Shown here: positions 1 to 4,735 of the stretch, piece after piece
How the letters are laid out: the number at the start of each line of letters is the position of its first letter
How positions within the stretch are numbered: the first letter of the stretch is position 1
UHGV virus genome: UHGV-1398520
Strand: one strand, 5' to 3'
Source of the DNA: a virus
DNA: 4,735 nt
The notes under the pieces: model-generated
Told to the model about the DNA's origin: nothing
Database searches by the model: none
What the model saw: only the letters and a program-made list of their open reading frames with translations
Program-made: the position numbers and the translations under genes

Positions 1-90
1 AGCACTTCGCATCACTCAGACATGATTTAACATAATATACATTATGCGCACCAATGGTAAGGATGGCGGGAACTGGCGTTACCGGTGCCG

Positions 91-324
91 TCATTGGTCA
101 CAGACCGTAATCCACTGGCCCAGGACGTCTTTCAGGCAATGTTGGCATAAATCCAGTTTTAAGCGATTACTGTCACCAAAAATTGAACCGTATCCAGCTA
201 AGTGATTAACAGACAGAAACTCATTGAACTCAATGTCATCTACCACCGTCTTCGCATGGCGACCACAGCGATCGCAGGTCTTCGCACATAACATTACAGT
301 ATCGCTGGATGTGAAAAATTGCAT
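91..324 (-). CDS. hypothetical small protein (77 aa) with zinc-ribbon-like CxxC...CxxC motif
   Basis: ATG at 322-324 and TGA at 91-93. Strong SD-like GAGGAG about 5-6 nt upstream on the minus strand (reverse complement of roughly 330-337). Cys pairs CDRC and CQHC are about 40 residues apart, plus two further Cys. No family recognised from memory. GC content (about 44% by hand count) is similar to the phage genes. Confidence 0.5.
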   Translation of the reverse strand: MQFFTSSDTVMLCAKTCDRCGRHAKTVVDDIEFNEFLSVNHLAGYGSIFGDSNRLKLDLCQHCLKDVLGQWITVCDQ

Positions 325-395
325 TTTATCTCCTCGTAATGCTGCCGCGCCGAATCAGCAATAACGCTAAAAAAACAGAATTGTTCGGCTTGGCC

Positions 396-440
396 AACCC
401 CTGACACTAACAAAAGCAAGTTTTGTCATTGTCCGGGGTT
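396..440. promoter_or_regulatory. imperfect composite palindrome between the two small ORFs (candidate operator or weak terminator)
   Basis: Outer arms aacccctgaca (396-406) and tgtccggggtt (430-440) pair with one mismatch; inner arms acaaaa (410-415) and ttttgt (421-426) pair around loop gcaag. It lies 2 nt 3' of the 102-aa ORF stop on the minus strand. An A7 run (T7 on minus) at 369-375 is about 20 nt away, so it is not a canonical intrinsic terminator. Confidence 0.3.
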
Positions 441-441
441 A

Positions 442-750
442 TCATATAAACCAATAGACCGTCCTTACGCCATTCTGGTTATCAATAACATAGCCGCATT
501 GTTTCCTTAAAAATTCTTCTGCTAAATCAATGGCTTTTACAGAAATCTCATAAGAAGGAAGTAAAGTGTATCCTTTCCCTTCACTGGCAGCTGCTTTGAT
601 CGCATCCAGAGTATTATCAATCAGTAACAGAGCAAGTGATGCTTCATTTACCTGAGCCGAAGAACTTCTGGCTGCAAGTGTCATTGTTTTTGCTTCTTCC
701 GCTGTAATCGTTCGTTCTGCCAGAGCAGATAAAATCCCATAAGAATCCAT
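442..750 (-). CDS. hypothetical protein (102 aa), function unknown
   Basis: ATG at 748-750 and TGA at 442-444. GGGG SD-like element about 6 nt upstream on the minus strand. Co-oriented with the phage genes, 20 nt downstream of the hairpin that follows gene IV. No signal peptide or recognisable motif. GC about 40% by hand count. Confidence 0.5.
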   Translation of the reverse strand: MDSYGILSALAERTITAEEAKTMTLAARSSSAQVNEASLALLLIDNTLDAIKAAASEGKGYTLLPSYEISVKAIDLAEEFLRKQCGYVIDNQNGVRTVYWFI

Positions 751-771
751 TAGTTACCCCAATCAATAATG

Positions 772-829
772 TCCATTTGATGGATAGCGAGCAGGGCTCA
801 CGCACCTACCCGCTATCCATCAAAGTGGA
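772..829 (-). terminator. long stem-loop overlapping the gene IV stop codon; candidate leaky intrinsic terminator, attenuator or packaging-signal-like hairpin
   Basis: Arm 772-789 (tccatttgatggatagcg) pairs with arm 811-829 (cgctatccatcaaagtgga): 14 contiguous bp, one bulged G at 825, then 4 more bp. Loop is 21 nt (790-810). On the minus strand it is followed by the A/U-rich ACAUUAUUGAUU. The gene IV stop TGA (820-822) lies inside the right arm. Confidence 0.4.
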
Positions 830-2085
830 CGAATGATATGTGCTGTAAGCAAAATATACATAATACGCTGTTCATTGCTGTCTGCCTTGCTACTGAAAAT
901 CCAGCCTATAAGAGGAATTTTACTTATAACTGGAACTGAACGCTCGGCATTGCTGAACGATGAATCGATAAGCCCTCCCAATAACAACGTCTGACCATCC
1001 TTAATCTGGACTGTCGTCTGAATCTGGCGCTGATTAGTAATAATATCGGATGCCTGATCATCATTGCTGATTGAATCAGCGCGAGTGTCGATAGTCAGAA
1101 CTAGTTGCCCGTTACCCATGACAACAGGCGTTACCTTGAGAGAAACGCCAACATCATGACGCTCGATAGTCTGAAACGGATTATTTACCCCGGCAGATTC
1201 GCCCGTTACCTTTCCGGTGATAAACGGCACATTCTTACCTACGGAAATGTAACCAGTCTGACCAGACTGAGTAAGAATACGCGGCGTTGAAATCACCTTA
1301 GAGCGTGAATTACTCTGGACAGCACGCAGAGACAGCGCCAACACGTTACCATCAAAAATACCAAAAGAACCGCCCGCCGTAGAAAGAGCGCTACCCAGTG
1401 CAGAAGTATTAAAGCCCCCCGCAACCTTATGACCGGATGCAGAACCTGCCGCAAACGATAAATCAACGCCATCAGACAAGCTGGTTTCAAACATCAGCGA
1501 CTGAATGAGAACCTGATCGCGGGCAACATCCACAGAATTGATAAAATCGGACAGAACCGGCAGCAGCTCGTCAGGCGCAGAAACAATCAGCGAGTTATTG
1601 CCTGGATAATCCACGACATTACCACCACCATTAGAATCAAGATAAATTTTAATCAGTTGCTGAACATCGGACGATCTAACTTTTGTCAGCTTAAAATTTC
1701 TGACCGTAAGCGCCACAGGTACTGGCTGGTAAGATGGCTCAGAAGGAAAAGTATCATAAGACTGGTTATCAGAATCATCGGAATCCGAAACCATCTGTGA
1801 AGGTAATTTAGACGGCAAAGAGACTACCGCAGGATTGCCAGAAAGCATGACAAAACCGTTAGCATTCAGAACAGACTTAAAGAAATCATCAATATTTGCT
1901 GGATTAACATCAGCATTAAATACGGTTACGTTTCCTTTAATATCAGGATTAACAATAACAGGCTTGCCAGTTTTTGAAGAATACCACTGAACAAATGAGC
2001 GAACAGATGAATTATTTAAATTAACAGTTTCAGCAGAAACGCAGAATGAACAGGCAAATAAAAAAGCAACAATAACAGAGCGCAT
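820..2085 (-). CDS. IV: filamentous-phage secretin pIV (outer-membrane export channel)
   Basis: 421-aa product from ATG 2083-2085 to TGA 820-822. N-terminus MRSVIVAFLFACSFCVSA has signal-peptide character. C-terminal VPVISKIPLIGWIFSS and the GGSFGIFDG / NPFQTIER blocks align with M13 pIV as I recall it. AGGAG lies about 10 nt upstream (fwd 2096-2100). The track ORF extends to ATG 2176-2178, but that extension overlaps gene I and has no homology support. Confidence 0.9.
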   Translation of the reverse strand: MRSVIVAFLFACSFCVSAETVNLNNSSVRSFVQWYSSKTGKPVIVNPDIKGNVTVFNADVNPANIDDFFKSVLNANGFVMLSGNPAVVSLPSKLPSQMVSDSDDSDNQSYDTFPSEPSYQPVPVALTVRNFKLTKVRSSDVQQLIKIYLDSNGGGNVVDYPGNNSLIVSAPDELLPVLSDFINSVDVARDQVLIQSLMFETSLSDGVDLSFAAGSASGHKVAGGFNTSALGSALSTAGGSFGIFDGNVLALSLRAVQSNSRSKVISTPRILTQSGQTGYISVGKNVPFITGKVTGESAGVNNPFQTIERHDVGVSLKVTPVVMGNGQLVLTIDTRADSISNDDQASDIITNQRQIQTTVQIKDGQTLLLGGLIDSSFSNAERSVPVISKIPLIGWIFSSKADSNEQRIMYILLTAHIIRPL

Positions 2086-2092
2086 AATAATA

Positions 2093-2467
2093 TTACTCCT
2101 GACAGGTAACAGTCTGTAAATAACGGCCTTTTCTAATAACAACACGACAGGCATCTTTAATATCAACGGAATAACCATCTTTAATCAAATCAAAATACTG
2201 ATATTTCATACCTTTTGCATCAACAAACGTAACGGAAACGTCAAAGCCAAGTTGTGAAAAAGAATTAATAGAAAGTCGGGGTAAGTCACTGGACGAATCA
2301 GGCGTTACCGCCCTCGCCTGTTCAGCATAAGCAGATTTAATAGCTGAGATTTCATCAACATTCTTTCCAGACTGGAGCCAGAAACCAAACGCAAGCCCCA
2401 GCGCCAAAAAAGAAAGCATTAATATAAGACGGTTCGATTTGCGAAAATAAATTTTAGTGAGGCGCAT
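2093..2467 (-). CDS. XI: pXI, in-frame internal-initiation product of gene I (C-terminal 124 aa)
   Basis: In-frame ATG at 2465-2467 is Met241 of pI, the same relative position as the pXI start in Ff phages (MRLTKIYFRK here versus MKLTKIY in M13 by recollection). GAGGA lies about 12 nt upstream. It is immediately followed by the transmembrane segment. Inferred by positional homology only. Confidence 0.5.
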   Translation of the reverse strand: MRLTKIYFRKSNRLILMLSFLALGLAFGFWLQSGKNVDEISAIKSAYAEQARAVTPDSSSDLPRLSINSFSQLGFDVSVTFVDAKGMKYQYFDLIKDGYSVDIKDACRVVIRKGRYLQTVTCQE

Positions 2468-3187
2468 ATAATAATTAAATCCTCTGTGAACAGAAAATTG
2501 ACCGTGCGTGATAAATGGTGGCAAAAGCGAAAATGCGCCATGAGGATAATTATCTGTGAACGCTTGTTTGGTATTGTAAGCAGAATAAAGAGATTTTCCT
2601 GTATATATCCATTTATCAACAGTGATTGAATTAACATTATCACCATATTTGACAATGCCAAAGTGTACCTTTGGTAAAGAAAATCTCGCCCCTGAAACCA
2701 AATTCATAATGGAGCCAACAAAAGGAATGTTTAATTTATCTGAACGGCGACAATAAACAACATGCTCAGCAAGCGCCAGACGAGCTTGCTTATCCATTAT
2801 CGAAATATCCTGAATCAAAAATATAATATCCCAGCCTAATTTTCTGGCATGTAAAAACCAGTCAATAACAGGTTGCCTGTCTTTATCACCCCATGAGCGG
2901 GAATTAAACCAAGTACCACATTCATCAAGTACAAGGAGGCCATTACGGGATTCATCGTAAGATGTATTCCCAGTACCAATAGCAAGTAAATCATTTAATG
3001 AAGGTTTGTCAGGAATGCGAATAACGCGCGTTTTTTTCGCATAACGCCCAACCATAGGCATATTATGCAATTTAAGATCAAGATTAGTGGCAACAGGACA
3101 ACCCTTAGCAAGTCTTTCCTGTATTCTGGAAACACTAACAAGTGTCTTGCCTGAGCCTAATTTGCCTGTTACTACATAAACCGCCAT
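2093..3187 (-). CDS. I: filamentous-phage assembly protein pI (Zot-like P-loop NTPase)
   Basis: 364 aa, ATG 3185-3187, TAA 2093-2095. Walker A GKLGSGKT (aa 8-15, nt 3143-3166) and Walker B-like LLVLDE (aa 84-89). Long collinear similarity to M13 gene I protein as I recall it (MAVYVVTGKLGSGKTLVSV..., QDISIMDKQARLALAEHVVYCRR...). Hydrophobic segment LILMLSFLALGLAFGFW matches the pI transmembrane helix. AGGGTGA SD-like element upstream. Confidence 0.9.
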   Translation of the reverse strand: MAVYVVTGKLGSGKTLVSVSRIQERLAKGCPVATNLDLKLHNMPMVGRYAKKTRVIRIPDKPSLNDLLAIGTGNTSYDESRNGLLVLDECGTWFNSRSWGDKDRQPVIDWFLHARKLGWDIIFLIQDISIMDKQARLALAEHVVYCRRSDKLNIPFVGSIMNLVSGARFSLPKVHFGIVKYGDNVNSITVDKWIYTGKSLYSAYNTKQAFTDNYPHGAFSLLPPFITHGQFSVHRGFNYYMRLTKIYFRKSNRLILMLSFLALGLAFGFWLQSGKNVDEISAIKSAYAEQARAVTPDSSSDLPRLSINSFSQLGFDVSVTFVDAKGMKYQYFDLIKDGYSVDIKDACRVVIRKGRYLQTVTCQE

Positions 3188-3529
3188 TTAAATCACCCTG
3201 TTTGCATAATCAAGAAATTTTTGTTTTAAATCGAAAACAAAAACACTGATACGAGTAACCATAATAACGTTAACACACGCCTGAAAATGGTCAGGCAATA
3301 CAGACGCCATTAAATGGGAGAAATCAGCAGGTAAACCGTTATACATGACCTCAGCAAGGTACTGCATTAAAAGCGTAACAGTTGTTGTAATTAATGCGAC
3401 CAATGCAAAGGCAATTAATCCTGTTCTGGTAGCAAGTCGAGCTAAAAAACTCGCCACATAGCCAATAAACAAAGGAACAAGACCAATAAGAAAACGCAAC
3501 AATGCAGGAATACCTAATAATAAAGGCAT
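3188..3529 (-). CDS. VI: minor coat protein pVI
   Basis: 113 aa from ATG 3527-3529; the track M at 3530-3532 is a GTG one codon upstream. TAA 3188-3190 directly abuts the gene I ATG. Hydrophobic small protein MPLLLGIPALLRFL... and C-terminal VFVFDLKQK resemble M13 pVI (MPVLLGIPLLLRFL..., IFIFDVKQK by recollection). GGGGGTGA SD-like element upstream. Confidence 0.85.
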   Translation of the reverse strand: MPLLLGIPALLRFLIGLVPLFIGYVASFLARLATRTGLIAFALVALITTTVTLLMQYLAEVMYNGLPADFSHLMASVLPDHFQACVNVIMVTRISVFVFDLKQKFLDYANRVI

Positions 3530-4694
3530 CACTCACCCCCTTTGCGAAGCAATGAAGTTAAAGAAGTAAAGACATACCAGAACGTAAGGCAATAAAAAAC
3601 CCATGAAAGAACATCTTTAATAGTCAGTAATTTATCGCAACCAATATCAATCTGATAAACCTCTCCGGGAAAATAATAAAATCAGAGCAGCCGTTACCAT
3701 TGGGTAAATTAGGCAGCATAGCACCTTTATTTAAAAATGCTTCCCATAAAGCACCGTGAGAATCCTTTTCAATTCCCAATTCAGAATCAGCTAAAGTAGA
3801 AGCGCCATCTAATTCAGAGTCGCCCTTTCCATAACGAGAATCACCACCTGAAGGGTCAGCAAAACGGCCAGCCCCCCGCGTAAGATTGTTAATGGAATCG
3901 TCAAGACGATTTATATTATTCCTGGTTTGTTCATCGGCATTTTTTTTATCATCTGATGAAGTGTCTTTCTCCGTTAATTTATCATGAATATCGCTGGCTA
4001 TTTTGGGTGAAGCACCTTCGATCGCAGACTGAATATCACCTTTAGAAAGACTGGAACCACTAGAGCCACCGCCAGAACTACCGCCACCGGACTCACCACC
4101 GCCAGACTCACCACCACCGGACTCACCACCACCGGACTCACCACCGCCGGACTCACCACCGCCGGACTCACCACCGCCGGACTCACCACCGCCAGACTCA
4201 CCACCACCATTTTGGGGGGTTGAGGGTTTATCAGAGGGGTCAGCTACAGCACCTGTAGGCTTCCATGTTGCAGCGCAAACAGTACCATCACCCTGACAAA
4301 CAATGACACCAGTAGCCTCATATTCACAGCCGTTATAGTAGATATAGCGACCACCATCATATGAATCAACATTATTAAATACACCTTCTTCTGGCGGCTT
4401 CGCTTCACAAATTTCTTCTGGTGTCGGGTCAGTAGGTTTTTCATCAGGAACAGAACGCTGAATATTACCAACAATATAAGCCGTTAAAGACCAATATTTA
4501 TCCTTCTGCCCTGGTGAATCGCTGTAAGTACAATCGCCAGTAAAAACAAGACGGAATTCAGAATCAGGCCAGATACCCTCATAAGTTGGTTTAATCCGAG
4601 TAAATACACTCTGAGCACTGGATTTAGCACCCTGACAAGCGGAGGCCTGCATAGCAGCATCAATATAGTAAACCGTTATCGGTAATGATTCCAA
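3529..4694 (-). pseudogene. III: gene III (adsorption/minor coat protein pIII) interrupted by a single-base frameshift; N-terminus atypical
   Basis: Frame A (3624-4694) encodes an N1-like domain (EICEAKP...[26 protein letters not shown], aligning to M13 N1 SCLAKP...YEGCLWNATGVVVCTGDETQCYGTW), a (GGGES)8 linker and the start of the C-terminal domain (NKGAM...). The conserved C-terminal anchor is only readable in another frame (3529-3672): [47 protein letters not shown], aligning to M13 ...GKPYEFSIDCDK...YVFSTFANILRNKES. The frame switch is at fwd 3667-3673 (ggg aaaa). The frame-B stop TGA overlaps the gene VI ATG (TGATG). There is no signal peptide; the track start is TTG (4692-4694) with no SD. 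Confidence 0.65.
4050..4208 (-). repeat. tandem 15-bp repeats encoding Gly-rich linker (GGGES)x8-(GGGSS)x2-GSS within gene III
   Basis: Near-identical 15-nt units (ggactcaccaccgcc / agactcaccaccacc on the fwd strand) repeated about 10 times. They translate on the minus strand to GGGES repeats at aa 163-215 of the frame-A product. Confidence 0.9.
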
Positions 4695-4735
4695 CTTATT
4701 GATAGTGTTTTATGTTCAGATAATGCCCGATGACT

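Follow-up and report, generated by a model that had tools for sequence, protein, structure and literature searches.

The gene III remnant that ends a 4,735-nt stretch of virus DNA (UHGV virus genome UHGV-1398520; the whole stretch is called the window here) would be a doubly inactivated, non-functional pseudogene: its 5′ part is cut off at a junction with IS1, and its 3′ part is thrown out of frame by the loss of a single nucleotide. The window is almost certainly the dif-proximal part of an E. coli filamentous prophage of the UPΦ type, related to IKe and I2-2, in which IS1 abuts gene III; this part comprises dif, two UPΦ-specific small genes, genes IV, I and VI, and most of gene III. The absence of a leader from the apparent adsorption protein is secondary: it is caused by the IS1 junction and is not a trait of the IKe/I2-2-type g3p family. 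The features on which the argument draws are given below in the numbering of the window.

[quoted passage not shown]
91-324 and 442-750, minus strand: two small ORFs between gene IV and dif, with no Pfam family above cut-off
820-2085, minus strand: gene IV, secretin, intact (Pfam PF00263/PF03958/PF21305)
2093-3187, minus strand: gene I, Zot family, intact (Pfam PF05707)
3188-3529, minus strand: gene VI, intact (Pfam PF17537)
3529-4680, minus strand: most of gene III, in the gene order III-VI-I-IV
3529-4065, minus strand: C domain of g3p, disrupted by a 1-nt deletion (comparison with intact relatives)
4066-4205, minus strand: Gly-rich linker, a 15-nt tandem repeat (GGGES, 9.3 copies; Tandem Repeats Finder)
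4239-4436, minus strand: predicted TolA-binding (Ff N1-like) domain (PDB 4eo1, 1tol, 1g3p/2g3p; Pfam PF05357)
4443-4680, minus strand: remnant of the putative pilus-binding domain of an IKe-type g3p, residues 49-127 of the 430-aa intact precursor (Pfam PF21443, PDB 4eo0)
4680/4681: junction of gene III DNA and IS1 (comparison with UM146)
4681-4735, minus strand: right end of IS1, with the terminal inverted repeat GGTAATGATTCCAACTTATTGATAGTG and the last codons ...KHYQ before the stop at 4698-4696 (database matches)
4692-4694, minus strand: TTG "start" of the 356-aa ORF, fortuitous and within the IS1 inverted repeat

The phage portion of the window has close relatives in E. coli. Positions 25-4680 align with positions 1728-6381 of L001, which carries the prophage of E. 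coli UM146, at 99.6% identity, the homology starting at window position 25, and prophages in 47 complete E. coli genomes are 99-99.8% identical to the window. Genes VI, I and IV differ from those of UM146 by point substitutions only, and the two small ORFs have counterparts in UM146 and VL46 that are annotated "hypothetical protein". The gene block follows the canonical order III-VI-I-IV, with the same synteny in IKe, I2-2 and UM146, and its nucleotide identity to I2-2, IKe and Erwinia PEar phages is 66-70%. As published, UPΦ phages are integrated at dif, are nearest to IKe and I2-2, carry two novel genes (h1 and h2) in a region that is intergenic in IKe and I2-2, have a GGGES repeat of variable copy number in g3p and often occur in tandem copies (Shapiro & Putonti 2020, PMC7307601). 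These features and the 99.6% identity to E. coli prophages together suggest that the window belongs to the UPΦ group.

The longest ORF in the gene III frame runs from 3624 to 4694 on the minus strand and encodes 356 aa from a TTG codon. The original prediction held that this ORF has neither a signal peptide nor a convincing start and that stop codons occur in all three frames within 4676-4721, and our analysis bears out both observations. No Shine-Dalgarno-like motif is present in the 25 nt upstream of the TTG (CTGAACATAAAACACTATCAATAAG), and minus-strand stops at 4678-4676, 4698-4696, 4712-4710 and 4718-4716 cover all three frames. The best 9-aa Kyte-Doolittle mean within the first 30 aa of the window ORF is 1.26, where the intact orthologue reaches 3.34 and the IKe and I2-2 proteins 2.62; a signal peptide is absent from the window ORF and present in the intact orthologue (MRRKILILSAVLISPFSHA).

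The window ORF lacks a signal peptide because phage coding DNA ends at the IS1 junction. The window and UM146 are identical up to AACCGTTATC, after which UM146 continues with TTAGAGCC and the window with GGTAATGATTCC; the break point, between AACCGTTATC and GGTAATGATTCCAACTTATTGATAG, is the first base of the IS1 terminal inverted repeat. When window positions 4300-4735 are compared with the complete E. coli genomes that carry gene III (47-48), the match ends exactly at 4680. What lies beyond agrees with IS1 at 54-55 of 55 nt. On its own, the segment 4681-4735 matches 71,109 places in 4966 E. coli genomes and at least 5000 plasmids, the latter at 95-99% identity and with IS1A/IS1B family transposases as the features annotated there. 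A 60-nt query that includes this segment matches annotated IS1A/IS1B elements at 96.7-98.3%, and in L007 the match to 4681-4735 falls on the 3′ end of a CDS that is annotated as IS1B transposase. The reading frame that ends ...KHYQ on the gene III strand, with its stop at 4698-4696, we take to be insB. From this one visible end, 55 nt in the window, we infer that a complete IS1 element adjoins gene III. IS1 holds the TTG and three of the four upstream stops, and contributes to the ORF the codons for M-E-S-L and the first two bases of that for P5. Since the TTG and the in-frame upstream stops are IS1 sequence, the apparent start of the ORF is accidental.

Comparison with intact relatives defines what is missing. 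In UM146 and in VL46, which has the same intact gene III prophage in the same chromosomal flank, gene III is 1293 nt long and encodes 430 aa; the UM146 CDS is annotated "attachment protein". The N-terminus of the intact orthologue WP_013649912.1, MRRKILILSAVLISPFSHA followed by ESWESITKSTYQ (mature ESWESITKS...), aligns with the annotated 19-aa signal peptide of IKe and the mature DNWESITKS that follows it (DNWESITKSYYT). This alignment, together with the hydrophobicity of the segment, suggests that the signal peptide of the intact orthologue is cleaved. Intact orthologues with a signal peptide are present in 47-48 complete E. coli genomes. Relative to them, gene III in the window lacks 143 nt, corresponding to its first 48 codons (the 19-aa signal peptide and the 29 mature residues after it). 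The suspicion that the 5′ end is also damaged was therefore well founded, the junction at 4680/4681 having removed these 143 nt, although the damage is neither an indel nor a sequencing error. Two other ways of accounting for the 5′ end were considered and rejected. A signal peptide is not restored by a single indel, there being no phage sequence upstream of 4680 in the window. A fusion of insB to gene III, or read-through from one into the other, is not supported either: the frame that ends ...KHYQ is not that of gene III, which the stops at 4712-4710 and 4718-4716 close.

The junction recurs outside the window. An exact look-up of the TTG-start 356-aa product gave no match, and that of the ATG-start 342-aa product (3624-4652) identified three contigs:

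L004: NCBI isolate assembly GCA_003304195.1, contig NRWR01000088.1, 99.98% identical to the window
L005: human gut metagenome contig, ERZ920136, 100% identical to the window
L006: gut metagenome contig, ENA assembly ERZ1745065, 100% identical to the window

All three have the same junction to the base, share with the window the A4 allele described below and end 54-130 nt into IS1. L004 and L005 run 54-73 nt past the end of the window, giving about 110-130 nt of IS1, and the added sequence presumably resembles the 3′ region of insB. The junction is absent from all 5426 complete E. coli genomes, and a search for it among species-representative genome contigs and JGI metagenome contigs, two collections that probably lack the strain, returned no match. 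The lineage with the doubly disrupted gene III is represented by one isolate and two human gut metagenomes.

The second lesion lies near the other end of the gene. At plus-strand positions 3670-3673 the window and L004-L006 have four A residues and the intact relatives L001, L008 and L009 have five (a run of T on the coding strand). Translation in the shifted frame ends at 3624-3626 and in the original one at 3529-3531; the frameshift alters the last ~40 codons and puts the C-terminal membrane anchor out of frame. One added A restores a C-terminus that ends at 3529 and is collinear with the membrane anchor of IKe and I2-2. The Gly-rich linker is there, as is the greater part of the C domain, and both are collinear with IKe and I2-2. 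In calling the 5′ end "also" damaged, the original prediction implied a lesion at the 3′ end, and the deletion that turns A5 into A4 confirms it. On the established biology of Ff pIII, a product with no signal peptide would not be exported and one with no anchor would not be incorporated into virions, and it is on these grounds that we consider gene III in the window to be a pseudogene. This copy of the prophage, unaided, would probably yield no infectious particles. As UPΦ prophages are often tandem (PMC7307601), the same genome may hold an intact gene III at another site.

The part of the protein that precedes the Gly-rich linker consists of two recognizable domains. An N1-like domain had been placed from about aa 93, with an extra segment containing two Cys in front of it. 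This placement agrees with the alignments to 4eo1 and to 1tol/1g3p, which put the onset at about ORF residue 87-94 and leave ~85 aa before it. PDB 4eo1 matches ORF residues 87-152 (E 2.5e-25), the Ff N1-TolA complex 1tol matches with an E value of 9e-16 and 1g3p/2g3p with about 1e-12, and the Pfam family PF05357 (Phage_Coat_A) scores 25.3 bits against a cut-off of 20.8; the domain is accordingly named here for its predicted binding to TolA. Ff pIII structures align to ORF residues 94-181 only, that is to N1 and the linker, with no match for N2, as expected from the earlier statement that no N2-like domain is present.

The ~85 aa before the N1-like domain are a 5′-truncated copy of a ~108-aa domain. 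They score 68.6 bits (cut-off 27) against PF21443 (G3P_pilus-bind), the window covering profile positions 36-105 of 105 and the intact orthologue positions 2-105, and PDB 4eo0 aligns with the window ORF from chain residue 30 to 110 of 115 (E 5.8e-20). Both Cys of this N-terminal segment are invariant in IKe and I2-2. The "Pro/Glu-rich linker" that had been described after the segment is conserved in IKe and mostly forms the N-terminal part of the crystallised TolA-binding domain. A search of IKe g3p against the PDB places 4eo0 at IKe residues 20-128 and 4eo1 at residues 130-199, so that IKe itself has the pilus-binding domain first and the N1-like domain second. Jakob et al. (2012, in Mol Microbiol) reportedly characterized these two domains of IKe g3p, 4EO0 as binding N-pili and 4EO1 as binding TolA. 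It is from the Pfam name, the homology to Ff N1 in its complex with TolA and that work that we regard 4EO0 as the probable pilus-binding domain and 4EO1 as the probable TolA-binding domain.

The same layout extends over the whole protein. Aligned together, UM146, the window, IKe and I2-2 are collinear over the full length, signal peptide to C-terminus, with 54% identity for the intact orthologue. In the region of the Gly-rich linker the window and UM146 differ by a 3-nt in-frame indel, and PDB 8b3o (Ff pIII) matches the C domain of IKe g3p. The proposal that the architecture is a distinct one is thus correct relative to Ff only and does not hold against IKe and I2-2, whose layout is identical; nor are the N-terminal 90 aa a novel feature, since in the alignment to IKe and I2-2 g3p they are a standard domain. 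Identity to IKe and I2-2 is 46% in the pilus-binding domain versus 73% in the TolA-binding domain. The lower value raises the possibility that receptor specificity differs, and UPΦ phages could conceivably use a primary receptor other than that of IKe and I2-2, although we consider this improbable. The UPΦ authors did not succeed in obtaining infections (PMC7307601).

Gene III in the window thus carries two lesions. The right inverted repeat of IS1 takes the place of the first 143 nt of the gene, and with them of the ATG, the Sec-type signal peptide and 29 mature residues; a separate 1-nt deletion in a run of five T residues removes the membrane anchor. If the element entered by simple insertion, a 9-bp direct repeat (about ACCGTTATC) is predicted to flank IS1, followed by TTAGAGCCATCC (TTAGAGCCATCCTGATTGG) and gene VIII. 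Inactivation of genes by insertion of IS1 is commonplace. In E. coli MB51 an independent IS1A interrupts gene II of a related UPΦ prophage, one half of the gene lying on either side of the element, which indicates that decay of UPΦ prophages by IS1 recurs.

Other readings of the same DNA fare differently against these data. The raw appearance of the ORF, with its TTG, its missing leader and the unfamiliar domain in front of N1, is all that would suggest a leaderless, distinct adsorption protein with a natural start near 4694 and a novel receptor-binding domain. We give this reading next to no credence: the start codon and the sequence upstream of it are IS1 DNA, orthologues that are 99-100% identical downstream of the junction run 48 codons further and begin with a classical signal peptide, the N-terminal domain is a homologue of the IKe pilus-binding domain cut at profile position 36 of 105, and the C-terminal anchor is frameshifted as well. 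It is also very unlikely that the contig end is chimeric, with IS1 reads misjoined to a gene III that is actually intact. Every contig with the junction does end within about 130 nt inside IS1, a repeat of the kind that confuses short-read assemblers, and the failure to find the junction in any complete E. coli genome would fit an artefact. However, three assemblies made in different projects (the NCBI isolate, ERZ920136 and ERZ1745065) share this junction to the base, and the break lies exactly where the IS1 terminal repeat starts, as transposition predicts and random chimerism does not. The A4 frameshift common to all three assemblies is likewise consistent with a real clonal allele.

More weight attaches to a variant of the favored account, that the junction was left behind by an IS1-mediated deletion or inversion and not by a simple insertion; the 5′ end of gene III and genes VIII, IX, VII, V and II would then not adjoin the far side of IS1 and may have been lost. 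We hold this to be a possible course of events, though on present data an unlikely one. Each end of the 11-kb contig L004 is an end of IS1, the two being inverted relative to each other, an arrangement that permits inversion, and the species-representative and JGI metagenome collections gave no match to the reciprocal junction predicted by simple insertion (the left end of IS1, 0-14 nt and the gene III bases that come next). The known junction is missing from these two collections as well, so that the negative result is a weak one. The IS1 in gene II of MB51 is moreover a simple insertion, and other copies of the lost genes may exist regardless in prophages that are usually tandem (PMC7307601).

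These results remove a false lead, in that the window offers no leaderless or novel adsorption-protein architecture. For annotation, the ORF at 3624-4694 is best described as a pseudogene, the gene III of a UPΦ-type prophage truncated by IS1 and frameshifted. Its seemingly unusual domain order is the IKe/I2-2 layout, the reverse of that in Ff. The allele is a possible clonal marker of an E. coli lineage in human gut samples, and it adds a second example, beside MB51, of the decay of a UPΦ prophage by IS1. A weaker possibility than a different receptor, and likewise an improbable one, is that the lineage with the doubly disrupted gene III has kept pIV secretin, pI and pVI intact because the remnant serves the host in some way or because another copy of the phage, tandem or co-resident, makes up for it. 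In kind, none of this is new: the architecture of IKe/I2-2 g3p, the UPΦ group and inactivation by IS1 are all already known.

The closest known systems place these observations in context. The g3p of IKe and I2-2 (Lineavirus) has the same domain order as that reconstructed for the window gene, namely signal peptide, pilus-binding domain, short linker, N1-like domain, Gly-rich linker and C domain. The two Cys of the first domain, every Cys of the N1-like domain and the C domain as a whole are conserved, and the gene order III-VI-I-IV is the same. The window differs from IKe and I2-2 in a linker built of GGGES units, in the absence of the first 48 codons of the gene and in the 3′ frameshift. With pIII of the Ff phages (M13, fd and f1) it has in common a homologue of N1, linkers rich in Gly and a C domain, whose membrane anchor is out of frame in the window. 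In Ff pIII, however, N1 comes right after the signal peptide and is followed by N2, which binds the F pilus, whereas in the window the putative pilus-binding domain stands ahead of the N1-like one and N2 has no homologue. UPΦ901 and its relatives share with the window integration at dif, a pair of additional hypothetical genes that separate gene IV from dif, variation in GGGES units and occurrence in E. coli from humans. One UPΦ, GCA_001519645, is described as having a premature stop in gene III, and term searches of that paper and one section of it gave no IS1-disrupted allele (PMC7307601). The copy in the window differs from these phages in being defective, with IS1 in gene III and a frameshift in what is left of it.

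Gene III in the window carries a frameshift and a repeat-encoded linker:

3670-3673: single-base homopolymer deletion, A4 in place of A5 (on the coding strand, a run of T)
4066-4205: 15-nt tandem repeat, 9.3 copies, encoding the GGGES linker

The deletion shifts the frame of the last ~40 gene III codons, with loss of the membrane anchor. The A4 allele is common to the three contigs that share the window's gene III-IS1 junction (L004-L006), whereas the relatives with intact reading at this position (L001, the prophage of E. coli UM146, L008 and L009) do not have the deletion. Relative to UM146, the GGGES repeat has several substitutions and an in-frame indel of 3 nt, and variation in g3p among UPΦ phages is reported to come chiefly from this linker region (PMC7307601).

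The IS1 end that abuts truncated gene III (4681-4735) has a one-base difference from the majority of IS1 copies. The best plasmid matches to a 60-nt query (window 4676-4735) stand at 98.3%, and only 1/5000 plasmid records among the matches listed reaches ≥99%. As an IS1 variant this end is rare and could serve as a marker of lineage. A single base likewise separates it from the second IS1 end of L004 (GCA_003304195.1, NRWR01000088.1), an 11-kb contig that holds the window's sequence and is itself bounded on either side by an IS1 end (1-109 and 10832-11165), the two inverted relative to each other. The second end adjoins a gene cluster with Pfam matches to HTH_AraC, SafA, Molybdopterin, FimH_man-bind and Usher, which we take to resemble the ydeO-safA-ydeP-ydeQ region of K-12. 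Together, the inverted ends and the adjoining cluster suggest an IS1-rich host and a possible IS1-mediated rearrangement of its dif region. In E. coli MB51 (NZ_CP073946.1), a related UPΦ prophage carries an IS1A in its gene II (L009, 7091-8920), which is split into two halves that are each annotated as a pseudogene. This insertion is an independent event; the UPΦ prophage family has therefore been struck by IS1 at least twice.

The opposite end of the window contains the following features:

25-52: 28-nt E. coli dif site, an exact match to the reverse complement of GGTGCGCATAATGTATATTATGTTAAAT
91-324 and 442-750, minus strand: small ORFs of 77 and 102 aa, between gene IV and dif
771-830, minus strand: long near-perfect hairpin overlapping the gene IV stop

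The boundary of the prophage is marked by the dif site. The chromosomal flank of VL46, a further E. coli with intact gene III, is matched by window 1-24; in UM146 a different sequence follows dif and window 1-24 is unmatched.

The small ORFs probably correspond to h1/h2, the genes specific to UPΦ. A Pfam search with both returned no family above the cut-off; the 77-aa product contains CxxC...CxxC motifs and has a sub-threshold match to the zinc finger PF06827 (17.3 bits, cut-off 21.3).

Folded as single-stranded DNA, the hairpin has an energy of -25.3 kcal/mol (z = -7.5), equalled by 0/200 shuffles. Because it is placed as is the annotated "morphogenetic (packaging) signal" of IKe and I2-2, this candidate is probably, by analogy, the UPΦ packaging signal.
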